In this document: positions 4,860-32,700 of the stretch, piece by piece
Numbering within the stretch: the first letter of the stretch is position 1
How the letters are laid out: each line of letters starts with the position of its first letter
Notes under the pieces: model-generated
Database searches by the model: none
The model's input: the letters and a program-made list of their open reading frames with translations, nothing else
What the model was told of the DNA's origin: nothing
Assembly (NCBI GenBank): GCA_016927795.1
Contig: JAFGLX010000021.1
Coordinates: forward strand, 1 to 38,455
Origin: Candidatus Omnitrophota bacterium
Lineage (GTDB): Bacteria; Omnitrophota; Gorgyraeia; JABMRN01; RBG-13-46-9
Length of the DNA stretch: 38,455 nucleotides
Direction of reading: 5' to 3'
Made by a program: the position numbers and the translations under genes

Positions 4860-4913
4860 TTTTAAGCGCTCCTCAATTTATTGTGAAAAAACATTAAAAA
4901 CGCGTATATCGCT

Positions 4914-5435
4914 CTATTGATATACGTCATTTCCCGAACTGTCTATGCCGACTATCAAAGGAAAGTTTTCCACCTTCAGCCTGTATATGGCCTCGGGTCC
5001 CAATTCGCCGAAAGCCAGAAGCGTTGCCGAAACTATCTTTTTGGCCAGATAGGCGCCGGCTCCGCCGGCAGCAAGAAAATACACAGCCCCATATTTTTTG
5101 ATATATCCGGCCACCTCTACGCTGCGTTTTCCTTTGCCTATCATGGCGGCCAATCCCTTTGCCAGTAAAGGAGGGGTAAATTTGTCCATGCGCGAGGCTG
5201 TAGTTGGGCCGCAGGACCCAAAGGTGCCGTCGGGACGCTGTGGCGTGGGGCCGGCGTAGTATATTATTGTGTTTTTCAAGTCAAACGGCGTCTTTTTACC
5301 TTTGGCTATGAGTTCCGTCAATTTTTTATGTGCGGCGTCACGCGCCGTGTAAACCGTTCCCGTAAAAAGCACTTCTTCCCCGCATTTTAATTTTGATAGG
5401 CCCGACTTAGTTATGGGAGATACTATTTTTTTCAT
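4914..5435 (-). CDS. Class I Fe-S hydro-lyase beta subunit (fumarate hydratase / L-tartrate dehydratase C-terminal domain family)
   Basis: Track ORF of 173 aa. Motifs present: GTVYTARDAAHKKL, IYYAGPTP, GSCGPTTASRMD, MIGKGKRS, YFLAAGGAGAYL. Confidence 0.85.
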   Translation of the reverse strand: MKKIVSPITKSGLSKLKCGEEVLFTGTVYTARDAAHKKLTELIAKGKKTPFDLKNTIIYYAGPTPQRPDGTFGSCGPTTASRMDKFTPPLLAKGLAAMIGKGKRSVEVAGYIKKYGAVYFLAAGGAGAYLAKKIVSATLLAFGELGPEAIYRLKVENFPLIVGIDSSGNDVYQ

Positions 5436-8713: not shown

Positions 8714-8794
8714 ATGCTTAAAAGAAATATAATATTCAAAACAATATGCGTTATCCTTGTGGTAACGTTTATTTTTGAGAACATCCTGTGGGCC
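8714..8794 (+). other. N-terminal signal peptide or signal-anchor of the giant protein
   Basis: MLKRNIIFKTICVILVVTFIFENILWA: a basic n-region followed by about 18 hydrophobic residues. Confidence 0.6.
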
Positions 8795-11700
8795 GATCCG
8801 GAGATAGGGAAGCCCGATTATTTCCGCCGTAACACGCTACAGGTCCCGTCCATGTTTATACCCCGGACTGATGAGAAAATTCTCGAGGTTACGCTTAACT
8901 ACCTTATGAGCTGTCTCGACCTTCCTGATTTTAAAATCCCTCTGGAAGAGTTTAACTACCGCCTTACTCCCACTGTGGCGGGAGTAGACCTTGAGATGGA
9001 CTTTAGCCCGCCCGATGAGGACGGGAAGAAAAAAACAGGCAAATATAGAGAAGGTGAGAATTGGATTGTACCTTGTTCCACAACTTCACGACGCGGTTGT
9101 CGCTTATATGAAGCGGTCATAGACCCCGCTGGAAATGCTTCCCTTCGAAAACCGGGTATAAAAGACAAGGCGGAAGGAGAGAAAAAGGCACCGCTCGCAG
9201 GACATATAAAAACTACCATCGCGCAGCAAAAACCGAAAGAGCTTGAATTGCCGGACAAACTTCACAGGAAATGGTTAGCCGATTTGCCGCCGGATCCAAA
9301 AATAACAGAAAAGATAGATTGCTATACCGGAATAGTCGAATATTCGCGTTACATAGATACGTTGACCAAATTTATCGGCCGTCATTTAGCGAATATCGCA
9401 GTTTTTTATATCGACTATGAAGGCAAGCGCGTTTTTAAACCGGCTTCGCTATATAATCTTTTTATTTTACTTCCGGTAATATGCGAAAATCTAACCCCTC
9501 TGGTCAATTTACCGCTAATGCTTCGCAGGGAAAAGTCAAGAAAAGAGCAGGAGACATATGTCAAAGAAATATTGGAAGCTTCGGAATCGTTTAAAAAGCA
9601 TTTTGCCCTGTTAAAAGATATGTCCGAAAAAGACTTTTACGAGCAAGCGAAGAAAGCTACTCATAGAGGTACACGGGATGACCCCATACCATGGTCTGAG
9701 AGGAAAGAGCATTTCGTAAAGCTCGTATTCGTAGAAAACGAAAAAGCTTCTTATAACCGGTTCCTTTTCAAAGAATGCATCTTACGAATGGAGGCGGCTT
9801 TCGGAGAAGCGGAAAAACACATCGCCGAGCTTAAAAAAACCACCCCCGATCCCGGGTCGGAGGAGGTTAGAGGCGATGCGGGCGGAGCACGGGTACCGGG
9901 ATGGGTTGCGACAATCAATATGTTTTTAAGATCCGGAATTTTTACGCTGGCGCTGTCAGGCAAATTTACTTGGTTTCGCAAGTTTCGGGAAAGGCTCAAC
10001 GTCTTAGCGGGATGGTTATGGCAGGAAATATCACGATTCGAAAAACAGATGCGGCTAAATAGGCTTATATACACCAATCCAAACATAGTAATCTTGACGA
10101 CAAAAATCACATATGAAGAAAGATGCGCAATAGCAGATAGCTGGTACCATCTTAAGCGCCGCTACAACGAAAAAGCTAATATTATTCTTGCCAGACCGAG
10201 AGATGTCAAAATATATAATAAAAGAATTTATATAACAGGCGGTGCCGTAAAGAGCGATGAAGAATTACCGGAGAGTTTCGGCACGTTTAAAAGCGAAAAA
10301 TTTGCAAGACCCGCCGAAGTTCATTATCTATTCAACCTGCATGATATAGCGGTAAGAGATATTGAGAATGTGGACCTGCCGCTCGAGGCGAATAGAAAGA
10401 TGGTAAACTTTCAAGATGACAAAGAAGAGCAGGTGATGCTGGCTGGAAAAATAGGTATTCCCACAAAAAAGATCATCGGAACATTTCTTGTGTCAGACTT
10501 TGATATTTTAGGAGATAAAATAGAAAAAGTATTTGAAGAAGGGCCGGAAAGTTTGAGAAACAGAGTCAAGGCGGGCGAAAAATTTTATCTCCAGCCAAGT
10601 GACCAATCGCGAAGAAGGATTTCCTGCATTATAAGCAGTGAAGGAGATATTGAAACTGCAAAAAATATTATACTCGGAGCCCTTACGAGCGAGAGTGTCA
10701 AGAAAATGCTGGTGATGGAATATATAACTTCCATACGCCCTAGGGAGGAACTTGCAGAACGCGTTCAAGGACAACAAGATAGAGAACCCCAAGAACTTAT
10801 AAATGACGTACGCATACTGGTAACGCTAAACGACCGGACAGGAAAGCTTGAAATAGGGGCAGCAAAGGTTAATGTCGCAAGGGAGATAAGGAGACAACAA
10901 GAACTTATTCCTGACAGAATGAAAGCGGAGGTAATGACGGCGGAACTCGAAGGGCAGCTTTCCTTAGACAATTTTTTAGCTTATATGCCGCTGGCAGGGC
11001 GTAAAAAAACCTTGTTGAAAGACAGGATAATAGAAGCGGCCATAGAGTATGCCAGGGAAGCGTTTGCAGAGGGAAAGAGGTTTGATACACTTGCGGTGGA
11101 TTTTATTATTTCAGACAAGTTAGATGGTGACGGCGTGCCCGAAGTTTATTTTATCGAATGCGCGACGCATTTCAGCGGCGAACGCCAATATAATTCAATT
11201 ACCCAATACGGATTCAGGGAGAGGCATTTCGCTGTTGCGTGCTCAAGGGCGAAAGCATACCGGAATACTTTGCACCATAAAAGAGCGGACGACGGAAAAT
11301 CTGCCTACCAAGCGGAGCAGCAAGGTAATCCGAAAACCCTGCCAAATACTTTCATAAGATCATCGCATAAGGTTATATCTGGTGGTAAAACAGGTACTTT
11401 ATACACGGCGGACAGGGAGAAAAAGCGTGTTCCGGCCGAAACAAAATTTCCCGTCTGGATAAATACTGAAACTAAAGAAGTAAAGATAGGAGAAAAACCC
11501 GAAGGCGAAAATTGGTGCCCATACACCAGCCTTTTACAGATTTCCAGCCCGCCGGCAAAAAAAGAAAAAGACGCAAACGAGTTTTCTGTTAAATTCGCGG
11601 CGTTTTACGGCCCGCATGGACCCGTTATGCCTGTCATAGACGATAAGGATTGCCTTGAAGGAGGCAAATATTACAGGCAAGCCTTACTCGGCATTAAGAA

Positions 11701-14700
11701 GAAAAAAGGCTTTTTCAAGGGAATCATTCCTATTTTTAAAAAATTAATCAAAGAAGAGGGGTTGTCAAAAGAAAATATAGAGATAACGACCTCGCTATTC
11801 AGCCTGAATCCTATATATACCGCACAAATTTTATATGCGAAAAATGGGAAAAAAATCATAGTGATAAACAAGCCCTTTGTGAGCATGATAGCCTTCCAGC
11901 TAAAATACGGGTATGGGAAAATAACGCTTTCCGATAAAAGGTTAATAGAAGAATCCGGAACCGCAAAGAAAAAGCCGCGTTTTATAACATCAGACATTGT
12001 AACAAGTGAAGTCTATTCTATAGCGCTACATGAGATAAGAGCGCATATCCGATTAAACGAGCCGGAAGTAAAGGCCCAATACAGAAGGGGCAAAAATTAC
12101 AGAAATATAAATATCGCGGCAATAGCGTACTACTGGTCCCTGGCGGCCGAAGGATATGATGAATTGCGTATTAAAAGTTTCTTTGAGGACAACCCACATC
12201 TTGTAGCAAGCGCACTTTCCGCATACTACATAAACGAAATAGACAATATAGAAAAGCAGCGTAAGACGCACGACATCCCGAGGCCTATCCAATACGTTAC
12301 GGTAACTTCAGAGGAATGGATGGCATGGCGAGAGAAGTTTCCGCGGTACGCTGCCGGGTTAACTTCATACGAAGAAATGGCACAAGAGGCCAGCTATATT
12401 CTCAGTAATGAGGCAACGCCAAATGGCGAGACTGGAAGAATAGAGAAAACCTCCGCACCGGAAGCTGCTCACCAGGCAAGAATACCTTATCAAGTTCCGC
12501 GTTCGAAAAGGAAATTTGAGGAAGATATCAAAATAATTCCGCTTGGTGGCGTTGGCGGTTCGGGAGGGAGCTCTTTTTATGTGAAAGCCGGTAAAACCCG
12601 ATGGCTTTTTGACGCGGGACAGGGTGTCGGCGTAAATAGCACGTTTATGCCGCGCTTTGACCTCATAGATGACGGATTGGACTTTATCATAATAACCCAC
12701 GCGCACATGGACCATATAGGATGCTTACCGGAAGCGGTCGCATATTTCGGTGATATCCCAATCTATACCAGCAAAATTACAAAAACAAAAATCAGGCTTA
12801 TGCTGAATGATAGGCATTCGGTTAATGAACGCAGGATAAATCGAAAAATCCTGCCGGGAATCGAGAGTAAAAATACAGAACACGACATATGGTTAGTCGG
12901 CAAAAATATCCGGACAGTCAAGTCGAGTAAATTTTATACCTTAAACGGTGATATAGAAGACGTAAAAATTAAATTTCTGTCTGCCGGACATTTGCTCGGA
13001 GCAAATTCCGTGGAAGTCCATACGCCTTACGGCAACATACTCTACACCGGTGATTTTTCCGCTGCAAAAACACGTACGACAAAAGGCATAGAATCGCCTG
13101 AAACCGCACCGGATATTCTCATCAGCGAATCGACATATGGTGGCAGGCTTAGCAGTAGTTCGCGGGAAGGGCTTGAATATGAGCTGGCAAGCGCTGTTAG
13201 TCGGATTATCAGCGGTGAAGGCACGGTTCTTATTCCGTGTTTCGCTTTGGGCCGCTCTTCAGAGGTTACATTGGCCCTATATGACGCCCGCGAAAAAGGC
13301 CTTGTCCCCAAGGATATGCCGATTTACTTAGACGGGTTGGCAGGAACAATGTTTAGGCTTGATATGGAATCCTGGCATTTGATGCCTGATTTACCTCGGT
13401 TAAAATCAAAGAATATTTTTAGCCCTGAAAATGGAATATTCCGCGTAAGGACAGATGAAGAACGCAGGAAAATAATGAATGAACCATGCTGTATTATCGC
13501 GACATCCGGCATGATGATGGAAGGAACGCTTTCGGCAGATATTTATGCCCCCCACATTTTATCCAGTACTCGTAACGCGTTAATTTTAGTGGGCTATCAG
13601 GCGGAAGGAACGCCCGGACGTAAAATTTCGGAATTGAAAAGAGAGGCAACGATTATTTTAGGCGATACACGCATACCCGTCAAAGCAGAAGTCTTGAGCG
13701 TGCCCCTCTCCGGCCATGCCGGCCACGGCCAGATACTTAATTTTATAAAAGGGATAAACGCAAAGCGTGTTTTATTAGTTCACGGAGATGAGAGTGCCAG
13801 AAAGGCCTTACTGAAAGACTTATCTTTTTCCGGCGGCTCAATCGAAACACCTCAAGTGGGAGAGGAAATTGTTTTAGTGCCGGAAAATAAAACCCGCCGG
13901 AAGAAAGAATTCCGGCAAACAATCGCGTTTCGGCTTGAACGGATAAGAACTAAGCGCAAACCCGCGCAACCATTTCCGCGAAGAGTAAGGCTTACCAAAG
14001 AGGGGCAAGAGGCGGAGAAGAGAATAAGATTTGTCGCGGAATTGGTCGAGAACAAAGACGGATTTTTCAAATTTGGAGACACAGTAACCCATGAACATAG
14101 AGAGTGGGCGGAGCGTATTATAACTTATCTGGAGACCAAAGGGCTTCATATCGGTATGATACGGTATTTCTTCCAGGATTTATTTAAGAACTGGAAAGCG
14201 GCGGGATTACCCGTAATTTATCTTTACGGCAGAAATCCTGCGGAACTTTGGGATCTGCGCGAAAAATCGGCGGATGAGTTACGTACTGTAGCAAACATGT
14301 GGCGCAAAAAAGAGAATAAAGCGAGAATGCTCTTTAAGTGCGCCTTCTTCCCGCTGTGGCTTTTTTGGGTTAGCGGTAAGGTTTTTTTACGGGCAGCCAT
14401 TATAATTCTCAAGCCCCAAAGCCGGATGGATTCGACAAAATTATCCGGCCATAAAGACAGTAATAAAAAGAGAGAAACGTTACCATTAGGGTCCAAAGAC
14501 TTGACCGAAAGGATACGCGTAGTTATGGACTCCATAGAAGAAACAAGGCGTAGAGGTGAAAGACTTGCGGCTATAGCCGAAGAAGCGAAAAGAGATTCCA
14601 GTATCTGGGAAAGGTTAAAACATAGAGGGTTTGTCGAAATCGCGCTTATTACCGTATTAGTGATTGTCGCGGGAGCGCTTATATACTTTGTCAGTGCCGA

Positions 14701-17700
14701 TGTCGAAAATATAAGTAACGGCATGTTAGAGTATTTTACCTCAATAGGAGCAAATGGCAATTTGCCGAAGATTGGCATGGCATTACTCGCATATTTAGTT
14801 TTACTCGGCTCATTTACAGCCAATCTCGGTGATTCGCAAGGAGAGCCAGTAGATGACGAAAAAATAATCGATACCGCTAAATCGTCCTGGTCATATCAGC
14901 TAAAGAGCGCGAACCGGCCCGATTGTCTTACGGTAGACAATGAAGCGGCTATAAGAACGCGGTTAGAAAAAAGCGTATCTCACGAAACCAAAAAAATAGT
15001 ATATGATGCCTTTAAACAATTTCCTAACGATATCTATTGCCTGCCAAGGAAAATGCTTGGCAGGAGAAATGCCTATTTCAGCATGGATTACGGTTTCCTC
15101 TGTTTTGCGGATGAAACGTTCGCCGATATAGGCGCAGACGGAATAATCGGAATCCTGGGGGGAGCGACAAGCCTTTTTAACGAAGGCAGATACGAGGCTA
15201 TTAACGCGTTTTGTGATGAGAAAATAGCGGCTTATTCTGAAGAAAGGAAAGCCAAAGATACCGTTCCTGCCGTAGAAAAACCTGTTACGAAAAAGAAACT
15301 CACCGTGACTGCCCGGATGCCAGAAACGCCTCTTGAAGATTCCCCCGCGCAAAGAATGAAGCCCAAAAAGGTTACCAAACCCGCCGAAACACCCGTGATT
15401 TCGCAAACTGTAACTTCAGAAGCGACACCATCAAAAACACACCCTGCATATGCGCAGCCTGGCGCTGAAAAATCATCTATTCTCCCGGCCATCGTAGATG
15501 TAGGAGGCGGGGAAGACGGTACCATAACCGCGGCTGTACTAAAGATGCGCCTTGCTCATGACGTAGAACGTTTGCTAAAAGGCCGGGGGTGCAGAAATCA
15601 GTTCAGCGTTCGATATGGCCGTTTGACTAACACGGACATATCGGTAGAAGCCGACGTAAGCGATTTAAAAGAGCCTAAATTAAACCTCGCCATTATTTAT
15701 GCATGGGATGAATTAAGTAAGGATGCTCTTTTTAAAATAGCGGTTCTGCCTGACCCACGTACAATAGAGCCGTCCGCGGTGAGGTACAAGGCCGATTTTA
15801 CAAAATATGATGTAAAAACACGCCTTGATGAGGTTAATCCTGAAGTAAATAACCTTTTACCGCTATTTAGCGAAAAGGTAGACGTCTGGAGCAGTAAAAC
15901 AAACAATGAGAAATGGGAATGGTTGGCGGATATAGTTGCGTCATGCCGGAAAATACTGGAGGTACGGCACGGTAAAAGGGAAGATGTCGAGAAGCACTTT
16001 GAAAATTTAAAGCATGAAAACCCTGAACAGGCGGAGGAAATAGACCGGGCAAAAACCTTTATAACCGGCATAATAAAAAAGGAATATGAAGTAACTTTTA
16101 AAATACAGGAAATCATAGAGCGCATAATAGGTTTTGCGGTAAAAGATGAAGTACCGGGCAAATGGGTCAAACAAGCCTTTAATGAGATTATTCCTTTAAC
16201 AGAAAAATGGCCAAGACTCAATCTCGCTTTTAAATCCTATATAAAAATGATATTTTCGGATAGCAAGCCTATGTCTGTCCAAAATGTGGCGAACATGGCG
16301 AACGATCTAAGTAAAATATTGCGTAATGAGAGGATACGTGAAATACCGAATTGCGGGCTTTCGGGGGAGGCCCTGGAGAAATGCTATTATGACGCGGAAC
16401 GCCTGGCCCTTTTGGACATTATCGAGGGTTCGCCAGATGCGCAAACCAGCTTGCATAGAAACGGGGTTCTCGGTATTCTTAAAGAATTTTCCGCTTCTGA
16501 CCGCGTTCCGTCTTACCGCCTTCTTAAGTCTGCCGTTGACGTATGTTACGGCACTATAGACCTTGTAACTAACGAAGTGTTTACCGAACTTATCAGGGAA
16601 AATTCACATGTAGAACGAGAGGATATAAAGGAACTTGATATACCTCTGGGAGGAATGGGTATTCTAATTTTGAAAAAAGACCATTCTTCCGGAGAAGATA
16701 AATATAAAATAAAACGTTATATAGAAGGCGCAGGCAACCTTATTTATCCGACAATAATAAGCGCAAGTTACCAACCTTACTGTTTTAAAGGGGAAGAATG
16801 GTATGATAAAGGTGATGCAGCCGTATTTTTATATCCTTCTTGTGGGGAGTGCCCGAACATGGAACAAATGACGATGTTTATGGAGGATTATTTCTATTTC
16901 TGCTTGAGGACCTCGACCTTCCCCGATGTCATGATGGGGGCCGTAGATTCAAATGGAAACGTATTCGCCAGGCGTCTGAACATATCGCCGGGAGACATAG
17001 AAGACTGGTATAAGGTAACGCGCTACGTTACTATAGGTTGCGGGCTTTTTAACACAAGATTGAGAAGACCCCTTGAGATGGACCTTGCCGTAAAAGCATG
17101 CAACGACATTGAGGCTTTGCCCGTAGAAGAAGAAAGAGATAGAACGGGGGTAAGCGTAACATCCGGAGGACGCGCTTTCTCCTGGGAGATGAAAAAGAGT
17201 AAGTTTAGAAGTATCGTAACCCGCATCGTCGGCAGGATCAAAGGGTTTACTAAAATTTTAGAAAACGGTTTTAGAGCTTACGGAATTAGCAGGCGAAATA
17301 TAGAATCCCATCTTAGGGCAATACAAAGGCGCATTCCGGATGGATGGAAAATATTAAGCAATTTCGAAATGTACACGCCGGACAGAGCGCCAGATATGGA
17401 CCTCTTGGATGTGCAATTACCGCTTATCTTACATAAGCTTATTATAGCAACCGGCGAGGAAACAGCGCTTTATGCGTACAATAACAGGACATTTTTCGAG
17501 CCGGTTTTTCTGGAGAAGCTTTCCGCAAAAGATGAGGCGGGATGCAGAGAACGCCGGCAAGCGCAAAAGAAAAAAGAACGAAGGGAGACCGCTCTTACGT
17601 TGCAAGGTATACGGAAAACGGATATACATAACCCCGAAGAAGTAATCCTCGCCCTTAATAAGTGTTCCGACATGCTCGCAAACGGGATGGAACCCAAATT

Positions 17701-20700
17701 CAGCGAAGAACTTTGTAAAATACGCGCGCAACTTGCAGAAAAGTTTTTCTCAGTACTGCTTAAGGAAATTGATGACCTTTTTGAAGAATTTAAAAGCGGA
17801 AGGAACTTTGACACAGGCTCAATATACGGTTTACTGAATAGATGCAGAACTGCGCCGGAAATAGCCGTCTATAATGAAGGTGCAGAATCAGATTTACTGC
17901 ATCTGGTAGATATAGCTACGAAAAAATTAAGTATTATCGATATATATGCCGGAAGTAAAAACTATGCGGAGCATCTTCTGGAAATCGAGGAAATAAGCCC
18001 CGATGTTATAAATGAGGCTACAGGTTTTATACAAGAAGCCGATAGTTGTGTAGAAGGGCTCGATGAGGGAGAAGAGGCTCCGGTTTTAGACAGGTTTGCC
18101 GAACTTAAGAACGATTTTAGGGAAAAACTTAAATATTTGATCAGACACGACATGGAGAAGGTTTACGCGGACGGAAGATTGGCTGACACCGTCCAACTCG
18201 AAGACCTATCCAGGCTTCTATCGCGCCTTTCGCTTATGTGCGAGTTGTTTAAAAACATAAGCGAAAATTCAAGAATAGAGGAATATCGCCGTTTCGAGAA
18301 AATGCGGTTGATAACGCAAGCTGTTATGGAAAGAGAGGCCGCGTATAAGGCGTTAGAGGCGCAAGCGCCCGCAAAAATGTCTGAAGAATTGATGTTAAAA
18401 AGAGGCGAACAATTTTCGGTTTATCACCGCTATACGGGTAGAAGGGTGGACATAGTCTTCAACGGAATAATAAGAGAAACTATCCAAACAGGAGACTACA
18501 AAGGTAAAGAAATCCGGCTTGCCCATTTTACTGTTAAACCTCCTTATGGCTTTATCCCGGTAAGCGGCAACGAGCTGGCATATTCACAGCGCAAACGCGA
18601 AAACTGGCGTTATCCCGGATTGGAAAAGTCTCTTGCGGAACACAAAAAGGCCATAGATACAATGTATTCCTTTTTAACAGAACAAGAAATTAAATGTTCC
18701 GAGCGCCCGGGTAAGTCAGGTGTAAATAACCAGTTTTGGCTATTTGTCCCGAATATATTTGAAGAAATAATAAAAGACAAAAGTGTTGTTGCAGGAGAAA
18801 CAGATTCAGAGGGTTCGATACCATTCAGTAGAGTAGCCAGGGATGCCGGTTTATCGATAGAAATCAGTTTATTGCGCGAATCAAGCATAGGGGGTGAGGA
18901 AGTATATATAAATATATCTGATAAGTTAGACCAGTATGACTTCGAAGCGCTTGAGGTAAGCGCTCCAGTAGCAAGGACAAAACCGCGAGGAAAACCCGCG
19001 TCTAGGATTTCAACAGTAACCGGCGTATCAGGGGTATCCGAGAAAAAAAGCTTACATATTTCGGATGGAATACCGCAAATGGAAACCCCTTCCGATACCC
19101 CGAAGATGCGTTTTACAGACGACGACGAGAGGGAAGCAAGAGATTTCCAGCAGGGCAGAGGACGCTTCTTTAAGACACCGAAAATAAGAACTATACATAG
19201 GGCCGGAAAAAGAGCCGCAAAAAGAGATGATGCGCAACCCGCAAAGAAGGGGAGAAAAACCGGCGAAATCCAAGAATTACAACCATTTATTAACGACGTA
19301 CAAAGAATACTAACAGATGCGGGATATGAAAATGGGCTTAACGGACTTAGCCGTGTGGAAGAAAGAGAGCTTTTTGAAAAGCATACCGGAGAATCCGTGA
19401 ATCTTCTTGTCTACTCGCAACTTTTGTGGATTATAAAAATCGCGTGGTACTATTGCGAAAAGAATTATGGCGTACATATAATGGATTTAGTTCATAGCGG
19501 TATGGACACTGTAAGAAATATTTTGACCAATAAACATCCGTCTGCATCAAGGTTTGACCCGACAAAAGGCAAACTCAGCACTTTTACTACACAATTCATC
19601 CACTGGGGAATGATGAGTTTCCTCGAAAACGAAAACCGCCTCCCCAATATCGACGACTTTGCGTTTTTTGGAACAGGCAGGGATATTTCTTCTCTCGAAG
19701 CGTCACCGCTTCACAAGGAGAGGGTTAAGCAACTTTTTCGTTACCTTAATGACCGGGAAGAGGAGATAATAAAGTTATTTTTTGGGCTGAACGGCAACCC
19801 TTCATTGTCCACCGAGGAGATCAGCGTTCTTTACAGACATTGTATTTCTCCGGTTACTGTTGAGAAGAAAGTGAGTACAATTGTAACAAAACTCTGCCTT
19901 TTGGGAACAAGCGGCGAAAATTCTCTCAAAATACTTAACGAGGATGAGAAAAAACACCTTTTTTCGCTTAAGACAATCCGCATGGTAGAGGATTTCGTAA
20001 GTGACCCGGACAAAAGAGCGACTTTAGATCCACGCGATTGCGAGATTCTCGAATTGCATTATGGCCTTTCGGGTGAAAAGCCAATGGGCTTTCGGGAAAT
20101 GGGAGGGCGTTTTCATCTTAGCAAGACCCGCCCGTCGCAGTTGTGCGCAAGGGCAATGGCTAAAATAAGAGAAAGTTACGAATCTGCGTGGGAAAATATA
20201 AGTCGTTCAACGGGCATAACGGAAGAAGGCATGCGTGAGGCTTACGGCAGGGCAAAGGAAAAAATCCAGCCTAAAGACAGTCTTTTGAGGGCTGAGCGCG
20301 CGCTTCCTGCGTTGGACGAATTCGTATCGGAATTATCCAAAACGGCCCGTTATATCACTGAAAATATAGCCGAGCTTCTTATAGCGCACTATAATTTAAG
20401 GCATCCGGTCGACACTCTGGATTTCCACCAATATTCTATGCCGAAAAAGATAACCCTTGAAGGTGACGAGGAGCTTAACTTTGAAAATGTCGTGAATTTT
20501 ATAGAAAACAAGGAAGGATTGACGAGCTGGGAGGATATAGCCGGATATTTCAACGCTTCCGGCGAAAGGGTGACCGTCAGGCGATTAAAAAAGAACTTTT
20601 ACGCTAAATTAAAGGAATACGCCAATTCCCAGCGCGAAAAACACAGGCTGGGCGTCCCGGACGGCGTTATTCCCCTCGTCTATGACAGAAAATACACGGA

Positions 20701-23700
20701 ACGGTTAAAAAAGGTCATTAAAGCTATTGAGGGAGAAACCGCGAAGGAAAAAAGCTACCGGCTGGGATTAGCCTCGAACATAGAAATATACAAAAGGTTC
20801 CCACATTATAAATCACGGCAGGCTTTAAGAAGATTATTCAGGGCTGTAAAAAGAAAACAATTCCTTTCTGACCTGAACTCAAACCGCAAATTTTTAAACC
20901 GTCTCGGAACGCCGAGGCGCATTCTTCTTGATATCGTGGAATACCCGGCACTCTATATAAGAGATGCCGTTAATAGCACAGTAAGTGACGCTGGATTAAC
21001 GGCGCATGCAATAACCGATGCCGCCAGCGCGAAATACCGCGGTTTGCGCAAAATGCTTAATAAGATTAATCTTGCACAGATAAATTACAACCTTTTTATA
21101 TTACAGGATGAAACGATGTATTCATCCGATGATACCGGAGAAAGAAAATACCGCGACCAGATTTTAAGGGTTCTTGAAGAGTTGGGAGGGCTTGGAAGTC
21201 CCGAGGAAATAGCGCACATTTTGCGGAAGTATTACTATATTGGAGCAAAAGGGCAAACCGTGGCCGAACACGCCAGAAAAATAGACTGGAAAAAACTTAA
21301 TGAAGATAGAGAATCCAGGCGGATTTTCCCGCTTCGGGTTATTTACAAAAAAGGTGATTTGAAAAGCGCTAATGGCGTACCTTGGGTATCAAAAATAAAA
21401 GAGGCATTTCTTGAAAAAACCGGCAGCCACCGCAATTTTTCACCTTTTGAAAAAATAACATTGCCCATGTTGTATAAACGCATAACCCGTTTAGTTCGCG
21501 GTAACGGCAATGGAAATGGGGCAAAGGAAGTTATCGAAAATTACTTTAGGCAGGCTGCCGGACTTACATTAAGAATCTCTACGAATCAAGAAATGAAAGT
21601 GGATAGGGATAGCTTTTTCCGATATGGCGTTGAGAGAGCGCTCAATTTGACTTCCGCGCAGCTTGCCTTAAACGGTGAGGACGGCTTTATCAAGAAATTT
21701 GAGCATAACTTAAGAAGAGTGGCAATCGGAGAGTTTCCTCTTGCAAGCTCTTCTTACGCGTACTGGTTGGAGCCGCGGATAGAAAAGGCCCGGGAACCCA
21801 TTCCGGACGCGGAAACTGTAGAGGTTCAGCCTTCAGGTGTACGTTTTACTACTGATAAAGAAGAAGAAGCACGGGCTTTTCAACAAGGCAGGGCGCGCTT
21901 CTTTAAGACACCGCGGAAAGAGATGTCCAAGAAGCCATTGTTCCAACATGTTATACCATTTGAGCGAGGCACGACACCGGAGGATATACTAAACGGAATA
22001 GATTTGGATAAAATAGTCGGCGATATGCTCAAATTTATATCATCCCATACGGAGATAGCTTATGATATAAAAGAAAAGATTACAGACCCTCAATCGGATC
22101 TTGACTGGTTAATGCGGGAAACCGTCGAAAACGCGCTTGATTCGATAGCGTTAAGGTTCAAGCGTGATAGAAGTTTTTCCTGTGGCATAGTAGAAATAAA
22201 GGCATATTGTGCGGATAGGACTACCCTTATTATCGAAATTGTAGACAACGGAGAAGGCTCAATAAAAAAGAGCCAGAACCCCTGGAAAAAAAGAAATGCT
22301 AAATCTCTTGGACTTGCCGGCCGTTTTAAAGGGGGAATGCGTCTTATTTATAAAATTGCGAAAGACTTAAGTGGCAAAGCAGAGCTTGTGAACCGAAATG
22401 GTACCAAAGGTGCTATACTCAGAGTTAAATTAACCTCCCGCAGGCCGAAGATAGAAGAAGCGAAAAAACCCGTTCCGGATGCGGGATCCGAATATCACCT
22501 GCCGTCATTCGGGCCATTAATGATATTTTTCGCCTTTTGGTTTAATTACGAAAAGCTCAAAAGATTAATCCTATCGCTGCAAGGCATTTTGAAAAAAATA
22601 GCCGTAAAATGCCATCCGAGTACAGGCCCACCTCAAGTAGTATCCGCTTTTAGCAGGGCATGGAAGGCTATAGTCGAGAGCAAGGCCTGGAATATATTTT
22701 TGGGTTCATCGGCTATTTTTACTTTAGGTGCCCCAATTTTCTGGTGGGCGCTTAAATACGGAATGCAGAAAGATGCCTCTCTCGTTACGGTTATCGCCAG
22801 CTTCCAGACAGTGGCGACGTATTTTATGGCCACCGAACTTGTAAAAATCGAAGAACGCGCTCTAAAAAAGTTTTTTGCCGTTTTACTCGTTACACTAGGC
22901 GTCCTTTCATTTTCACTCGCCAAGCTTTTTGAGGCAAATTTCGCAATAAATTCTGTCATAGGAATAGTTTTACTCTCATCGGCGTGTATTTTTATATTTC
23001 CAATGCAGTATACTTTCGGCGCCAGAGCCACGCAGGCGCACAACGTGAATCCCAACCTTTTGACAGCGTTAGGATTTAGTGTGGGGGCAATCACATCATC
23101 AATCATCCAGCTTATGATAGAGCCCGCTTTGGCCCTTAATCCTGTGGGACTATTTGAACATCTGTCGGCGCCTATTTTCACACTAAACGTTTTCTGTTTC
23201 TTATATGTACTGAAAGAGCTGATACAGTGGCTTCCGTATAATTATTTTCTAAAAAAACTCGGGGCGTCCGTGACGCAGGCCTCGTTTGCGACAGTGCCTT
23301 TCATAACCTTCGCTATAACGCTTTTCCTTGCGCCTTTTAATATTACACCGGGTTTGGTGGCTATTTTTATAACGTCGATTATGATGGTTGTAGGGGGTAA
23401 TATATGGCTTGTCCGCCACAGTAACCAAAACAATACCGGCGCGAAAAATAAATCGAACCTACTTTTTATATGTACTCTTCTATTTATAGCGGTTATCGCC
23501 AGGGCAACAGGGCCTGTTTTTGGCATAAAACTTGTTACAGGACCGGAGGACTTCTCTTTCATCCAGGCAATGTTCTCCGTTAATTTACTTTCGGCGGCTT
23601 TTTCATGGATAGTAGTTGCGATGTCGCCCGGACGAAAAACAAAGCCTAAATATTCCGCGCTGAAAACGTTTGTATTACGGTACATGCTGTTTAGGGGAAC

Positions 23701-26700
23701 GAAAATTAGATGGCCGGACAATAAATACAACCGTTCATTGAGGGCAAGAATCGAGCATTTCCGGCAGGACTTAGATAAAACAAACGCCTGCCGTAACGGA
23801 AAGATTATTTTGAGCGACAATCCGGATAATCTTATAACACGTTTGAGTTTCACATCGTTTAAGAACAGTAAAAAACCCACAAAGTTTGTCGGGGCAGTTA
23901 TTACGGCGGTAAACGATAAAACGGCAACCATAAAAATATACGGTTACAATGTGCATAACACAGCCGAAATTTTCAGGTCGAAAACCAAACCGGTAAAACC
24001 GGTATGCGAGATTGAGCTGGCGACCGTTGCGCCGCTCGATGACGGTGACAATCCCGCGGAGCTTGAGGAACTAATGAGGGATTACCAAAACTACTTTTTC
24101 GGGGAAATTTTCTGGATAGAACCCGTTAGAGATAAAATTAACGATAACGTAAAAGAAGAATTTCCGTCCACTACGCCACAAAACCGCCTACCCGCAGTAA
24201 GTGCGGAGGATAAGGTGGCCAAGCTTTTACCCAAACCGGCAAATCCAGTCCAGTCGGTAGGAAAGGAATGGTGGCTTGAGGACAGTCACGGTGGTATACT
24301 CTGTCCGATTTCAGCCATGAGAAGAAGAAGCGGGCAGGGGATAGGCGATTTAAGATGCGTAGATTTATTTCTGGAGCTAATCAATAAAAAGAAATTCGAT
24401 TTTGCCATGTTTCTCCCGACATCTCTTACAATGCCCGATGACCCAAGCCCGTATAACAGTATAAGCGTCTTCGCGAATAACGCCATAGCGCATATTCCGC
24501 TTGATGAATTAATCGGAAAAGATGTTTATGAGTCGTATCTGGATCTTTTTGTCGCAAAAGAGTGGCATTGGTTAATGGAGCATAACAAAATACGTCTTAT
24601 GCAACACTTAAACCCGGCCTTGATAGAAGAGATGAAAGGCATGATGGTTGTTGCGGACAATGAGTCCGCGCGGAATAATCTAAGGGCTTATCTTAAATCC
24701 ACTATAAAAGACGCTAAGAAAGCCGCCAGAGTAGACTATCCACTAATATACAGGTTCAATAATTTTGTACTTAGACAGGAATTTGAAAGGGTCTTTGAGA
24801 GACTGGCAAGCGGCTCTGTTGAGGCGTTTAACGTTTATGTCAATAAAAACGCGTACTGGCTTAAAGACTATAGCCTGTTCCACGCGCTACTCGATTATCA
24901 TAAAGGTTTTCCCTGGTGGACGTGGGAAAAGCCGTATCGCAACCCGGCTTCCGGCAATGCCGATTATAAAAAGATTATCGCGGAATTTTCCGGAAAACAT
25001 AAAAAAGAAATACTTTTTTATCAATACCTTCAGTGGCTTTATTATGAAAGATGGCAGAAAGTCATCCGGCACGCCAGGAACCTGAATAAAGAACTAATAG
25101 GGGACATGCCTATATACCCTTCCTGCAACAGCGCGGAGGTATGGGCCAATCAGGATTTATTCGATTTTTCCAAGACTGCGGGTGCTCCACCGGATATGTT
25201 TAACGACGCGGGACAAAACTGGGGTTTTTATCCTTATCGATGGTTTGATAGAAAGAAAAAAGTGCTCGATTTCTGGAAGAAGCGCATAAGGTACATGGCG
25301 GAATTTTATGACGCTGTCAGGGTCGACCACATTCTCGGTCTTTGTTCGGAGTGGCTTGTCGATTTTGGCAAGGCCGCCTCCGAAGGTAAATTTTATCCGG
25401 AAGACGATTTAGAAGCGGCAAAGCTGGGACGTGAAGTTCTGACAGAACTCGCAAAAACAGCCGCTGACACAAATACACTTTTGATAGGAGAAGATTTAGG
25501 AGTAAGGCCGCCCGAGACGAGGAAGATGCTTGACGAATTGCCATTAGAGCTTAATAACCTATTTTTGTATAACATAATAGGTTGGCGCGAAAAACATATG
25601 GCCAGAAGGCCGCATGTTATGTTTACGGATACCACGCATGACACGCCCCCTGTGTTTTCACTGCGATATAAAATAATGAATGAGGACGAGAGAAGGCAAA
25701 CGGCTGAATTTCTTCAAGCTTATAATGTGGAAATAGCTAGCGGGGACACGGAGGAATCGGTTGAGGCGAAAGTTATGGAAGCGATGCGCAATACAGGCTT
25801 TTATTGTTACACTATCCAGTCTTTATTAAATTATAAAGGTGATTCGCAGTTTAACGAACCCGGTACGGTAGGGCCGCATAACTGGACGTGGATGATGCCG
25901 GAGGAGCTTGAGACGGTTTTGCAGAAAGTAGAATCTACTCCGGAGATGATATTGCCTGAAACCGGCTCCGCAGGTAGCGTTAAACCTGCCCCCGATTACG
26001 GCATATCCATAGTGCCGGGGAAACGCGGCCGCGGGTTGCGTGTTTATGATTCTATCGTTTCAATAACGGTCGCGTATCTTGCATCAGCACTCTGGTTTTC
26101 TATATGCGCATTCGTGGCTGTCATGTTAGCGATAAGCATATCGGGACCGGTAGACCTTTATGAATTTATTTTTAAAAACCTTTTTGCTTTAAATTCACTC
26201 CATTCATGGCTGCTTGTAAGTTTATGCGGTACATCATTTTTATATGTCGGGAGACTTGTCGAAGACATGATATTCGCAAAATTAAATTTCGCTAAAGATG
26301 CCAATCTGTATTTAACCGACCAAAAAGGACAGTCTTTTCATTACAGGGGCCCTTCTTACATAAGTCACGGCATCGCTAAAGATGAACGCCATGTAATAAT
26401 GATAGGTAAATCCATTTTTAGAAAGTTGTATTATTTCCTGAACGACGCCGTTAATGAGATTTCCGCAATGGAGAATATCAAATTTTTGCTTATTATTTCC
26501 TGCAACCCCTCATCCTCTTATGGTGGCCCCGCCGAAATACCTTATATCTATCCGAAATCTGTCGCTATGCAGCGCCCTCTTAGCTTTCTGGGAGGAGTAA
26601 ACCCCTTAAAGGGTAGAAAACGCTATCGTGCGCAGAGTTGGTACGTTGTTTTTCCGGGCGGAGAGGAAGTTGAATTGGGCGAGGCGATAAAGCGTGGGTT

Positions 26701-29700
26701 GCTTGGGGAAACAACCGTGGCAAAGGCGCCGTCCAGCTCCGAGACCACAGAAGTAAAAAACCCGGCCCCGCCTATTGCAATAATCGCCATCGCGGCGCTC
26801 CCTGTTATCGGCAGATTATCCGTTAAATTATGGAAATGGGTAAAACGCGCTACAGGAATATTCAAGAAAACGGCCAAAATGACCAGGGCCGAGAGATATG
26901 TATTTAGACTCAAAAATGAGGCCCAGTATTTTTATGACAGCGCCGTAATGTCATTTGCGAACTCCTCCTACCTCGACGCGATAACTTCTTTTGAGAAAAG
27001 CGCCGATATTTATATAGAGTTACATGGTCTTGTTACGGACAACACTGTTTTTAGTGAAAAATTGCGCGCGATAGCCAAAACACTCAAAGAAATTTTAGAT
27101 TACATAAGTAACGAAGGGGATTATGAAGAGTGCCTGGGGGCGCTGCAAAAACTTTCGGGTATGCAGAAAAGGACGGGTAAATTATCCAATCTGCTTTACT
27201 TAGTCAAAACAATCGCGGGAATGAACGAGAATATAATATCAGCACGCATACAAAGAAGGCTTATGAGTAAAGACGTAAGTTGGAAAGTAAGATTTGACGA
27301 GAAAAATCTTAAAATAGGCGACGCGGTTCTGGATAGGCGTTTTCGTATGTTGCTTTTATACAAAGGCCGCTTTCGCCGAAAGTTAACAGGCATGGCATCA
27401 AGGAAAAGGGCGCACCAGCTAGATTCACCGACGGGACATCAGAGTTTATCTATAAACAGCTTTTCGCAAATAGGGTTACTAAAATTTTTGTTACTTAGAC
27501 CACCCGCATCCTTCTCCCGGGAGTCGGAGAAGGAAGAACCGTCCGCAAAAATATCGAGTTATGTAATTAAGCTTATTGACGAAAATACGGCGGATGCCAG
27601 AATTGTGTTGTGCACCCTTCTTGAGCATAAAGATATAAGCGATACCGTAAAGGGGGTAATCATAACATATGCGACCGGTCCGGAACATGAGCCGATAAGG
27701 GCCCTTCTTCCATCCGTGCGCCACGCCGATAATAACGAAGACGCTCCCGATGACTTCCCCGGCACCAAACGTTACTTTATGACACCGCGAAAAAAACCGA
27801 AGCGGCCATCCAGAAAACCGCCTACCACCGCCAACCCCGGGTTGGAGGTGGTTAGACCGCTAGCCTGGCCGCAGGCACCTGTGGAAGTGTTAACGCAGAC
27901 GGATACAGGTATCTTTCCAAACGCATTGTGGCATGGGAGCGAAGTAGAATTTAATGTTATAAGAAAAGCATTGGGCTTATCCATAAAGGAGTATAGAGCC
28001 GCCCTTAATGCTGGAAAACCTAAACCGCTATCGCCGGTGACAATGGATGTTTATTTGCATCGCAGAAAAAATCCGGTTCCATATTTACACCTTGAATGGG
28101 CACGCAAGCTGTATGCTCAGAACGCCCCGCGCCGGCTTGAGGTATTGCTTAAAAGGCGCAATTTAACCGTCGAACAATTTACAGCCGAGCTTGGCGAAAG
28201 CGGTATTACTGTATACGTGTACGAGATAAAAGAGATGCTGGAAAATAAAAGGCCTGTCCCATATGAAATTTTGATAACCGCAACCAAGAACGACAGTGAA
28301 AAGTCAGGCCCTTTATTTGACAGGATATACCGGTGCTCAAAGCTGGTAGGAATAGAATTCAGTGAGAAGGTAAGCCCCGGTTCGCCTTTACCGAACTATT
28401 ACATGTATGAGATGAGAAGTGGTAAGCGGCCGATTCCCGATGAAATTATGCTTAATGCCCTGAAGCTAAACGTATCTTTGCTGGGCGAAGGTATTACTCA
28501 ATCTTCGCAGTTGCAATCCGAATCGGACGATGTAATACCGCCGGCAGTACAGGGACTGGCGGAGCAGGAAGATACGGCCACGATAATAAAGCAAGATGGT
28601 TTGCCGATTAAGAGCGTATCCGCCGCGGCAAAAAGCGGCGAGTTGCCGGTTGAGAGCGAAAAAAGGCCTATAAAATTTGAATTTCTCGAGGTAGGCCAGA
28701 TAATTACGCTTGGCGGTAGGGACTATAAAATTCTACGCCGATACTTTGCCCATGATAACCATAAATGGATAAAATTAGTGGAGGACATAAAGACGCACGA
28801 AATTTTTATTATCAAAGGTTTCAACAAAGACCATATAGATACCATAAACGCGCTGAGAAATTTACAACACCCCTGCCATGCTAAAATAATTAAAGTGTTC
28901 GAGCCGGAAGGTGCCTTTATGATGCCCGACTATGGAGCAGAAACATTTATCGACCATATATGCCAAAGCGCGGATGAAGGTTTGCCTTTGAAAGAGTGGC
29001 TTTCGGCGAGAGTAAACGAGGTAATATGGCTTTTGGAGGCCATTAAAGAAATGTCCGAAATCGGCAGAGACCATGGCGATCTATTGGATAAAGAACACCA
29101 TATTTTATATTCTGACGGCTTGCCGCACATCGTAGATTATCATATCTCTTCCTTATCCCGAGACCACTCCCGCGATCTTCACGGCATTATTTTGCAGGCA
29201 GAAGAGATAGTACGTACGGCAGAAGCAGCCTATGGATCGGGCGTTCCAGGGACGGGTATTATAGAAGAACTTGGCCGAATATTGGACGATATGAACGGCA
29301 GTTTTGAGCAGACTTTTACAAGAAAAAATGCCGATGAATTTATAAATATTCTGGCACAGTATCTCGATTCTATCGGTATGAAACGCATATCGGCCCAATC
29401 CGTGCTGACGCAGCCCGATTTACCCCCGCATTCGGAAATAGTTACGACTGTTTCTGAACCGATAACGCGGGTTGTCATAATTCCTGCCGGCGGCGTGGAA
29501 TTGCTCAAGCCGCACCAGCCCCCGCTTGAAAGATATAGTATAGAAGACGATGAAAATCTCGGCGAGTGGAGCGGCGGATTACCGGAAGGGGTAGACAAAA
29601 AAGGGTCAGGTAGCAAGCAGGAGGAGTTGGACAAGCCGCTTGGCATTGAACTTGTACCCGGCGTATTTGTACTTGAAGACGCAGTAAATACCGCGCTTGC

Positions 29701-32700
29701 AATGATATATCCTTCAGAAGAACTTCGCAGCAGTGTATTCAGGCCGATGAGCCCGCAGGATTACGACAGATTTCTAGAATTTATACGGCAAGGAGACAGC
29801 AATCTTTATTCCCTTGTTGATAAAACCGCCAAAGGCCTGCGAAGGCTCAACAGCGTATTGCAGCGTTCAATGGCGCTTGCTTTTATAAGTAAAGGAGGTC
29901 TCCTGCAAGATACTAACGCCATACGGCTTAAATTCAAGAGATACTCTTTCGCGGCGGCAGTAAATAATCTTTCGGCAGATGACTACAGATTATTTTATGC
30001 CTATTTTTCATCTCTTTTCGGGCGATGGTGGCAGGAGGCGGCGCCGGAATCTTACGGAAGGTTCATAAGCGGTTTGGAGTATATTGCCGAACACGATGTA
30101 CCACCTGGTCAACGCGAGCGCTTTAATGAAATTGTGACGAGGGTAAAGACGGACGCCGAGCAGCTTTATAAGCTTATGATTCATAATTTCGTACACCATT
30201 TCGGGGGCCGGATTCTGCCTCCCGAGCATAAAGATCCGCTGTCCGGCGGCCTGAGCGGCGAATTGCCGGATGCGGGATCCGAATGGCCAATTACATCTGG
30301 TAGCAGTGGTTATGACTTGCCTACAAGCGTGTTTAATGGCCTTATGGTAAAGCTTCTTGCGGCAGGTTTTGATGAAGGCCAAGCGCAATTGGTTATTTCG
30401 CAATTGTGGCTTGACGCGAATGTGGAGGATTGGAATAAGGCATACGAGATTATGAATCTTCTTATTGATATTATGGTCGTTGCAGGATTATCGCCGCGGG
30501 ATTATAAGGCATTGAACCAGCTATGGGATTTACATTGGAAGAGTTATAAAGAAAAAATGCCGGCAGAGTGGCTAAGAAAAATAAAAGAGGATCTCAGTAC
30601 AATCCCGGTGGAAGAGAGAAAAAATGTTATTGAGAATGTGCCAATTTCAGGTGCTAATTTAGAATTGGTTGGCAGGTATGGCTTAGCTCGCGCAAAGGAG
30701 GCATTCGGGATATCTGGAAAAGAATCGATCGATGCGGATGAAAGAATAGAAAGTAAGGCACTTGTAGCGGATGCTGAAACAGGAGAAAATATTCCTGCTA
30801 CATTTAGCGTTCGAGCGGATAACAGAGACGAAGAAAGCATTTATATCAATTATAAAAGAAGCCCAGATTTTCCGGGATTTAGCGGGTATTTAAAAACCAA
30901 GGTAGATAGAGAATGCATGTATGTAAGTGAGATTAATTCGCAAGAGTGGGATAAGTTGGATACGTCCGCCAAGTCCAAGATAACCGATTGGAGACAAAGA
31001 TTATTAGATGAAGCTATTAGGTGCGCCGGGGAAAGAGGATTGAAAAAAGTCGTCATTGCGCCCTACTGCGCATACAGGCTTATAGGCGGCTGCTCGGTTT
31101 ACAGAGGATATAAGGATTTTACCAGTTTGCCTTTCGAAGCAGGTTTTAAATTGAGAGTTTATGACGAAAAAACATCTTTTAGCGTGCGCGATAAGCATAT
31201 GGCCTCATATATGTTATGGGAATTAGATCTCACGGGGACTGATGCGAGGCCCGTTTCAGATAAAGAAGATAGCGGAGATATTTCAAGACGGGATCTTATA
31301 ATGCCTATATTGGCAGCTCTCGGTATAACGCTAGCGGTATTTTCAAAAGGTCGCGCTCAAGGATTGGAGTTGGACCTTAACGATAAAATAAATGACCAGA
31401 CCGAAGGACGATGCCCTGAAAGTGTAAAGATCGCCATAAACGACGCGCTGAACACGATTACGCGCAGACGCGATATGAGGAGTTATCAGATAGAACGCAT
31501 AGACATAGTTAACGCTGATGGCGGAGGGTTTAATGTTAAATTCGTTGTTAATACACGAAATGGCAGGCCCGAACCTCCATTCACAGACGTCCCGTTTACC
31601 AAACAGGATTTGGCAGACAAGGAATTATTGCAGAGTAAGATTGACCTTGTAACACGCAATATCATCGGCAGAGCATATTTGCCGGTCGAAATAAAGGGAT
31701 TGAAATATATTCGCCACTTAGCCATGAGTTTAATCTACGCTATCATCCCCGCACTTATAATACTTGTTTTAAGAGACGCATTCAGAAGATATCGCGCCTA
31801 TGTTAATTCGCAGAGAGAATCAGAGGCGCTAAAAAGAGAGCATGATTACCAGAAGCGGCAGGCCGACCGCCACGCGGGCTTAACAGACCGGAGCGCTTCC
31901 GATATCAGAAAACGTCGTCGAGGATCCATTATTTTTGGAGAAGATTCAAGAGGCACCTCTCGCGGCAAGGATATATCTCTCGCATTGCCGGGAAAGAAAT
32001 TCGACCTGTCGCCAAGAGACGTAGCGGAATGGCCCCCAATGATAAGGGAATTATTAAGTAAAAAACATAGAAAAATCTGGGAATGGGAGGAGCTTCTCGG
32101 GGCACTGGCCGGTTATTTCCCGGAAGGCCTTGCCACGCCCGAGAATATCGAAAAGATAACAAAAGGCACATTGAAAGCCAAAACCATAAAGTCTGCCTTG
32201 CGCGCTTACGGCATCAGGGAGAAGGTGGGAATTGCAGGCGAAAGGCGTTCAAGGGATGAATGGATAAAGGTTTTGAGAGTCTTATCCGACTTGTGTCCGG
32301 AAGGCGTTCGCACACCCGCGGATATAGCAAAAATTATCCAAGGGTATCTCACGGAAGAACAAATAATAAGCGTGATAAGGCGCCATAAGCTGACATATGA
32401 AGAGACAGGTATTGTGCTTTCTTCTGGTAAACCAGCGGAAACCATTACGGATGCAAAATCCGGATTTGGTAAAGAGAATAAAATCGGCCCCGGGCCGATG
32501 ATGATAGCGCTTTTCGCGATACCGTTTTTTGTGCGCATGTGGAGGCGGTTAACCCGAAATATCGACGGGAGAATAGAACTACCCCCGCTATCCGGCGGTG
32601 GGGTGATTTGGAGAATGCTTCGCACCATTCTGCCGGGCGCATTCGGCCTTTGGGCCGTTCCGCCGGGCAAGCCGGATATGCCGGAAAGGAGAAGCGGTCA

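Follow-up and report, generated by a model that had tools for sequence, protein, structure and literature searches.

Textbooks introduce sigma factors as subunits of RNA polymerase that are free and exchangeable. What, then, is a sigma factor doing inside a giant protein? The question is raised by a stretch of DNA of 38,455 bp (the window), which is the whole of contig C70 (JAFGLX010000021.1) in a metagenome-assembled genome of Candidatus Omnitrophota (GCA_016927795.1; 1.73 Mb, 189 contigs, 91% complete). Within the giant open reading frame (ORF) of this contig, window 19346-20188 is a complete, very divergent sigma-70-family module, which makes up the N-terminal third of an 886-residue cassette, or bead, shared with three other giant frames. 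One would not expect a complete sigma module to persist in frame within genes of 3,000 to more than 10,000 codons in four lineages.

A sigma-70-family module in a giant reading frame

The giant ORF and the parts of the module are located in the window as follows.

8714..38455, plus strand: giant multi-enzyme ORF, starting with ATG at 8714 and open for at least 9,914 codons to the last base, its 3' end cut by the contig end
19346..19651, plus strand: region 1.2 and region 2 (sigma2 domain), divergent, from TIGR02937, RpoH models, PHROG 351 and a profile of the four cassette copies
19691..19900, plus strand: first helix-turn-helix (HTH), residues 3660-3729 of the giant protein, region-4-like by profile and at the sigma3 position by alignment
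19922..19996, plus strand: linker SLKILNEDEKKHLFSLKTIRMVEDF, read by eye from alignments, with no scored match
20009..20188, plus strand: second HTH, residues 3766-3825, which is sigma region 4 (sigma4), from PF04545, RpoD region 4 (PDB 1tty, E 1e-4) and a match at an independent E-value (i-E) of 5e-9

The sigma homology is supported by profiles of different origin. Pfam PF04545 (Sigma70_r4) scores 33 bits against a cut-off of 24.1, in two stretches of which the best is window 20018-20173, and it is matched by all four cassette copies. TIGR02937 of NCBIfam, which describes the superfamily of sigma-70 and extracytoplasmic function (ECF) factors, is covered from model position 14 to 161 of 165 by residues 3573-3727, with a score of 37.5 bits that stays below its curated cut-off of 42.9. 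Many NCBIfam models for RpoD, SigA, RpoS and RpoH match region 4 or region 2 of the module, while the equivalog and subfamily sigma models all remain well under their own cut-offs. PHROG 351, annotated as RNA polymerase sigma factor, matches at E 3e-18 with its strongest stretch over region 2. The profile check that a preliminary description of this DNA had proposed was thus borne out for Sigma70_r4 and not for Sigma70_r2 (PF04542), which gives no match to the module, or for TIGR02937.

Against the PDB, the four-copy profile matches sigma factors at E 9e-17 (i-E 4e-5 for region 2 and 5e-9 for region 4), and it also matches chains that contain sigma2 only (RpoS 5h6x and FliA 9wsf) at about 8e-8. 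These matches remove the doubt on region 2, which by profile comparison is divergent but homologous to sigma2. The preliminary description had already read sigma-70 region 2 in this segment, and its view is supported by the same PDB matches and by PHROG 351; the start that it gave, 19481, cuts off regions 1.2-2.2, and the module begins near 19346.

The predicted fold agrees with this assignment. The AlphaFold (AF2) model of residues 3531-3838, which is biased to the sigma fold by an input alignment that included ordinary sigma factors, has a mean predicted local distance difference test (pLDDT) of 68; the sigma2 domain and the second HTH lie mostly at 70-85 (block means of about 70-84 over sigma2), the first HTH at about 55-73, and the linkers are poor. 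A Foldseek search of the PDB with this model gives 54 matches at E <= 0.001; the top 50 are sigma factors without exception, with alignments that span about 300 columns. Their template modelling scores are low, which is not surprising when a flexible protein of three domains is set against structures bound to polymerase.

The module aligns over its full length with ordinary sigma factors of 286-331 residues, as well as with RpoD and a 295-residue sigma factor of its own genome. In this alignment, LSRVEERELFEK is the equivalent of region 1.2, LLVYSQLLWIIKIA of region 2.1, MDLVHSG of region 2.2, and RFDPTKGKLSTFTTQF of region 2.3. By alignment, the first HTH takes the place of the region 3 HTH in ordinary sigma factors. 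Matches of this unit to region 4 models are confined to its N-terminal half (SigE and RpoD region 4 models over residues 3665-3706), with E of about 0.01 against SigA region 4; it holds the second Sigma70_r4 stretch, and its matches are weaker than those of the second HTH. Hence, of the two region-4-like units described earlier, the second is a clear region 4, whereas the first is a weaker match at the sigma3 position. The linker after the first HTH, SLKILNEDEKKHLF, appears by eye to resemble the acidic region 3.2 finger, SL.TPIGDeeD.HLGDFIED; the S, L and T of its SLKT are invariant in the four copies, and E.EH[LS]F is kept in three of them.

The same order, namely region 1.2, region 2, middle HTH, acidic linker and region 4 over about 290 residues, is found in the free group 1-3 sigma-70 factors RpoD/SigA, RpoS and RpoH (PDB 9dvs_G, 7ckq_F, 7f0r_F and 8hkc_E). 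The module is a divergent relative of these factors and not of ECF factors. Unlike them, it lies in frame within an ORF of at least 9,914 residues and within an 886-residue cassette, followed by about 550 orphan residues; its middle domain is region-4-like rather than region 3; and it lacks the core-contact residues of region 2.2, the Trp pair of region 2.3 and the Arg residues of region 4.2. A role in a defence system was also considered and discarded, as PADLOC gives only a marginal region-4 match to MzaA.

The cassette, its four copies and what they conserve

The module opens a longer unit, whose further parts are the following.

19184..21841, plus strand: sigma cassette (bead) of 886 residues, the unit conserved between giant proteins
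20390..20425, plus strand: motif YNL.HP..L.F, the last element common to all four copies, defined by invariant columns
20477..20620, plus strand: conserved winged-helix-like HTH (third unit), in which SW..IA is kept
20621..21841, plus strand: orphan helical C-terminal region of the cassette, with winged-helix-like units by eye such as QILRVLEELGGLGSPEEIAHIL, conserved with the copy in genome G359 and partly with that in G111

An exhaustive search of 1.84 billion representative proteins returned one strong relative, P0003 (6,109 residues, E 1e-39), the rest being tandem region-4 proteins and ordinary sigma factors; earlier word-index searches and single-sequence scans had given no relatives. 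P0003 is encoded in G359 (contig C8, CAYSFB010000008.1, locus L019; 60% guanine plus cytosine), in a frame of 6,155 residues. BLAST of the giant ORF against it yields a single high-scoring segment pair (residues 3548-4354 against 4575-5393, E 2e-65), and the two proteins have nothing else in common. The two cassettes can be aligned from one end to the other. NCBI labels G359 an uncultured Planctomycetia bacterium, whereas in the genome index it shares a class with the genome of the window; the two taxonomies disagree. Six-frame searches with the cassette profile, run over two overlapping samples of 401 genomes each, one drawn from the phylum and one from the class and together about 700 to 800 genomes, added only two copies. 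One, in G272, lies in a 9,642-residue frame and comprises the sigma core only, up to the YNL.HP motif. The other, in G111 (contig C77, P0155), lies in a 3,146-residue frame that fills its contig, and comprises most of the cassette and an internal partial duplication. This duplication, at residues ~1020-1290 of the G111 frame, contains YNL.HP and the SW..IA winged-helix segment, so that model positions 385-636 are matched twice. No cassette was found in genomes of the same family (13) or order (4).

All four copies therefore sit in giant frames, the three others at 27-42% identity, and in each of the four hosts the cassette has different neighbours. The latter makes the cassette an independent evolutionary unit, which either moves between giant genes or has been lost repeatedly. 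Its presence in frame in four independent assemblies argues against an assembly artefact.

Downstream of the module, the YNL.HP..L.F motif lies about 45 residues past region 4, and the homology to G272 stops just after it. The third unit, which begins beyond this point, is kept in the three other copies. A possible third region-4 unit had been suggested near 20520-20620; what lies there is a conserved HTH-like element that hhalign compares with region 4 at a probability of only 40% over 26 columns, and which has no Pfam match at E up to 10. On this comparison, the third unit is best described as a generic HTH-like element, and descent from region 4 is not supported. Over the whole remainder of the cassette after the sigma module (residues 3826-4376), several winged-helix-like units can be read by eye; there is no Pfam match and, by profile, no PDB match at E up to 1, and the NCBIfam scan gives only a marginal Fur winged-helix hint. 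An AF2 model of the C-terminal half of the cassette, from a two-sequence alignment, has a pLDDT of 42 and is unusable.

Most of the residues with which ordinary sigma factors contact their partners have changed. Of the region 2.2 motif DLIQEGN, only the D/E and the G remain in the four copies, and the Q-E-x-N positions read H-S-x-M, S-L-x-I, H-A-x-I and L-A-x-M. In region 2.3, the aromatic residue at the Y430 position is kept (F/W/Y/Y), while the W433/W434 pair is replaced by QF, LP, RP and KA; the full set of -10 recognition aromatics, to which the preliminary description had drawn attention, is accordingly not conserved. The recognition helix of region 4.2 varies in its Arg residues, and the G111 copy has lost them. 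Since these promoter-contact residues have diverged, any DNA specificity would be non-canonical. By comparison, the canonical pattern can still be recognised in region 2.1 and in the first helices of region 4, and L..SQ..WI, the Gly of region 2.2, P...L.T in region 2.3, EI..L.FGL.G...EI..Y, the S-L-x-T of the linker and YNL.HP..L.F are invariant. This set appears to be the structural skeleton of the module, and its retention across copies at 29-42% identity points to selection.

Taken together, we favour, at a probability of roughly one half, a reading in which the bead is a cytoplasmic, DNA-binding regulatory unit associated with RNA polymerase, either tethered or, more likely, released at the 25-residue junction peptides that flank the cassette. 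The bead would dock on RNA polymerase as a sigma-like subunit with a large DNA-binding tail, acting on the giant chain or, with greater likelihood, after the chain has been cut at these peptides, and such release would couple a transcriptional programme to the synthesis of the giant protein. We prefer a polymerase-docking unit because all sigma regions are kept in canonical order and spacing across four lineages at 27-42% identity. Several of the results weigh against it: the silence of Sigma70_r2, the TIGR02937 score under its cut-off, the bias of the AF2 alignment, the eroded region 2.2, the missing Trp pair and the varying Arg residues. In addition, residue-level conclusions are tentative, as conservation statistics from four copies are thin, and no C39 peptidase was found in the own genome.

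The same residues can be read in another way, which we consider the main rival and the less probable of the two. The fold may have been exapted, so that it no longer binds RNA polymerase, and the sigma-derived domains with their winged-helix tail would serve as a scaffold for binding DNA, RNA or protein, for example holding nucleic acid at a membrane-associated enzyme assembly. This would account for the unconserved core-binding, -10 and -35 contact residues and for the silent Pfam Sigma70_r2 model, and it agrees with the finding that conservation is best in structural cores and in novel motifs outside the canonical sigma regions (YNL.HP and DLNSNR..LNR). What it leaves hard to explain is the order 1.2-2-(3)-3.2-like-4 with normal spacing in all four copies, unless the three domains still cooperate in the manner of a sigma factor bound to RNA polymerase; the helix of region 2.1 (L..SQ..WI), moreover, stays near the canonical SNLRLV.

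Use of a region-4 unit outside a sigma context is exemplified by the tandem region-4 proteins from the exhaustive search (P0004-P0011), which for this reason also favour an exapted fold. These free-standing proteins, 600-1,450 residues long, consist almost wholly of region-4-like units, with 4-10 matched region-4 stretches in each (E 5e-26 to 9e-9, summed over several stretches). Their repeated L..R[EQ]..I..L.[YF]GL...EIA units resemble the two HTHs of the module, with no homology to the rest of the cassette. Among the three that were read (P0004-P0006), only P0006 has region 2. The tandem units are about 75 residues long and number up to about 12 by eye, and the proteins are rich in Lys, Asn and Ile, a composition that suggests low-GC organisms.

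The loss of canonical functional residues would also be expected of a decaying passenger, that is, a sigma gene captured in frame by a giant gene that accumulates modules and since deprived of its function. The patchy distribution, in four genomes of which none is in the same family, and the hundreds of different Pfam families carried by giant ORFs of this phylum (preprint 10.64898/2026.06.07.730766) would suit such a history. We nevertheless regard it as improbable, given a frame that is intact over about 890 residues in four lineages at 27-42% identity, the conserved hydrophobic cores and several invariant motifs, and boundaries that are kept precisely at the junction peptides.

Junction peptides and the location of the module

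The cassette is enclosed by two copies of a repeat.

19109..19183, plus strand: upstream junction peptide RFTDDDEREARDFQQGRGRFFKTPK, a 25-residue repeat
21842..21916, plus strand: downstream junction peptide RFTTDKEEEARAFQQGRARFFKTPR, a 25-residue repeat

Both follow RFT.D.E.EAR.FQQGR.RFFKTP[KR], in which RFFKTP[KR] forms the end (residues 3485-3490 and 4396-4401), and they are identical at 19 of 25 amino acids and 52 of 75 nucleotides. The core R[FY]F[KM]TP[KR] occurs three times in the giant ORF against none in 2,000 shuffles. The third occurrence is RYFMTPRKKPK at window 27770-27802 (residues 6353-6363), and a fourth core, KRFFKTPRE, is found on contig C23 at residue ~167 of a 3,517-residue ORF; the core is absent from all other open frames of at least 100 codons in the 1.73-Mb genome. 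A 14-nucleotide string, TTCTTTAAGACACC, is identical at three of the four core sites.

Peptides of another sequence mark the same borders in two of the other hosts. In P0003, the homologous block runs from one GARLA to another, and the protein contains ten GARL[AS] where 0.08 are expected. In G111, two SSARSEAR[ST] motifs enclose the cassette exactly, and ten RSE[AVI]R (0.01 expected) split the fragment into beads of 134-421 residues and the sigma bead of 1,140 residues; one of the small beads, of 308 residues, holds a PP2C match. The three lineage-specific motifs share the core [A/G/K]-R-[L/S/F/Y]. Because the junction codons vary synonymously, as seen between the GARLA sites, the motif is conserved as a peptide and not as a DNA element. 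Nucleotide hairpins or attC-like recombination sites were likewise rejected as explanations of the junctions: no consistent fold was found, the GARLA codons are synonymous, and the local copies agree at 52 of 75 nucleotides against 19 of 25 residues. No promoter- or terminator-like site occurs at the cassette borders beyond chance. The position of the motifs at bead borders in three genomes fits processing sites.

A stronger version of this idea, that the giant ORF is a true polyprotein in which the junctions are processing sites and the bead is freed to act as an alternative sigma factor, about 100 kDa in size and equipped with a DNA-binding tail, appears to us rather unlikely as a whole. If it were true, a transcription factor would arise only when the giant protein is translated and in equal stoichiometry with it, an undescribed way to make and regulate a sigma factor. 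Inactive sigma precursors as such are familiar. Pro-sigma-E and pro-sigma-K of Bacillus subtilis are membrane-associated, carry only a short N-terminal pro-peptide of about 20-30 residues and are activated by proteolysis; the sigma bead, by contrast, is flanked on either side by thousands of residues.

Where the module lies with respect to the membrane bears on how it could be released. The preliminary description placed a sigma-like unit inside a membrane protein. It is indeed one chain with many membrane helices, but the module is not embedded among them: it belongs to a stretch of about 2,500 residues free of membrane helices, the nearest being about 1,500 residues upstream and about 750 downstream. 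P0003, the host protein in G359, has no convincing membrane helix and no signal peptide. In G272, about 100 residues separate the start of the module from a preceding four-helix membrane block, which as read from the sequence has Lys/Arg-rich flanks on both sides and, by the positive-inside rule, would leave the module in the cytoplasm. The module is thus probably cytoplasmic.

These results bear directly on the mechanism that had been proposed for the locus, a membrane-tethered sigma factor with built-in anti-sigma logic, freed by regulated intramembrane proteolysis through a site-2 protease. The short distance to the membrane block in G272 would suit it, and the M50 site-2 protease gene that the preliminary description suggested looking for is present in the own genome. 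This gene is uninformative, since all 14 of the 14 control genomes carry one too. With the nearest membrane helices some 1,500 and 750 residues away, a homologue in a protein devoid of them, and no zinc finger or other anti-sigma element detected after region 4 by Pfam, NCBIfam or the PDB profile, we consider this mechanism very improbable. Release, if it occurs, would on this evidence take place at the junction peptides that flank the cassette and not by intramembrane proteolysis.

A published analogue of such a mechanism is ECF52 (SCO4117 of Streptomyces coelicolor), a single chain that joins a sigma domain to membrane helices and other modules and for which proteolytic release of the sigma part has been proposed (PMC5826349). 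The combination had been called unusual, which is fair for a giant ORF and less so for the link to membrane helices, for which ECF52 is a precedent. ECF52 is known from Actinobacteria only, as a protein of ordinary size with an N-terminal two-domain ECF sigma factor, a zinc-finger anti-sigma domain, adjacent membrane helices and a sugar-binding module (PMC5826349). In contrast, the module described here is internal, comprises three domains plus region 1.2, has no zinc finger that could be found, and lies far from membrane helices, with its closest homologue in a protein that lacks them.

The giant ORF and its surroundings

The closest counterparts of the giant ORF are the multi-enzyme, or class 1, giant proteins of Omnitrophota, which share the very long ORF, the tiling of unrelated domains of stand-alone type and the interspersed membrane helices (10.64898/2026.06.07.730766; 10.1101/2023.11.21.568195). 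The giant ORF has the features by which such proteins are recognised: about 10,000 residues or more, several unrelated Pfam domains (beta-CASP/MBL nuclease, Sigma70_r4 and GH77), and interspersed membrane helices, with about 20 or more hydrophobic segments of this type. The small size of the own genome and the sizes of its relatives, 0.5-3.7 Mb, would suit an Omnitrophota host. Cleavage of these giant proteins into pieces is suspected and unproven (10.64898/2026.06.07.730766; 10.1101/2023.11.21.568195). The main text of the two preprints makes no mention of sigma domains, and neither preprint describes junction peptides, one of them stating that cleavage points are unknown.

The sigma cassette offers a concrete handle on the question of whether giant proteins act whole or cut, because its borders are set by homology between otherwise unrelated giant proteins and coincide with above-chance motifs, and because the predicted binding to polymerase and DNA is easy to assay. 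If the junctions are processing sites, the annotation of giant genes could become that of sets of beads. If the bead binds polymerase, transcription would be coupled to a single gene product in a new way.

The own genome contains further fragments of giant ORFs, about 48,000 residues in total, and many of its contigs are a single open frame from end to end. Those open at one or both ends include C14, C61, C28, C99, C42, C43, C135, C128, C27, C32, C161, C13, C104 and C49, with 1,600-4,600 residues each. These contigs are probably pieces of two or three giant genes broken in assembly, and no second Sigma70_r4 match was found on them.

At its start (8714-8800, residues 1-29), the giant ORF encodes a signal-peptide-like segment, MLKRNIIFKTICVILVVTFIFENILWA, followed directly by DPE. 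If this were cleaved as a signal peptide, the N-terminal 1,850 residues, including the beta-CASP nuclease, would be exported, which is odd for an RNA-processing enzyme and illustrates the topology problem of the literature.

Such an opening also brings up delivery to another cell. The giant protein or its beads might reach a host or prey, where the sigma-like bead would redirect the RNA polymerase of the victim in the manner of phage-encoded sigma factors. An action on prey cells has been proposed for giant proteins of Omnitrophota (preprint 10.1101/2023.11.21.568195), and the best single sigma profile match is the phage family PHROG 351. This match is unspecific, as PHROG 351 is a broad RpoD-like family, nothing points to export of the sigma region, and the host protein in G359 has neither a signal peptide nor membrane helices; we therefore give an effector of this kind hardly any credence.

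A self-BLAST of the giant protein for internal repeats returned short motifs only. Among the short repeats are three near-identical copies of a hydrophobic anchor, G[PI]GPMMIALFAIPFF with W/R residues after it, at residues 7925, 8982 and 9369 (nucleotides ~32486-36880), and two copies of PDAGSE at residues 4588 and 7185, the first of them just upstream of a hydrophobic anchor-like segment. With these in addition to the junction motif, the giant ORF has more than one kind of punctuation.

The bead directly after the downstream junction (21917-~22480, residues 4402-~4590) has by eye the look of a GHKL ATPase, with ETVENALDS...IEIVDNGEG...GG.GL, and gives no Pfam match at E <= 0.01. It also seems to lie within the stretch free of membrane helices that holds the module, and it is followed by a multi-helix membrane block. 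Upstream of the giant ORF, on the opposite strand, the window carries housekeeping genes for an amidase, glutamate racemase, fumarase, RNase PH and Ham1.

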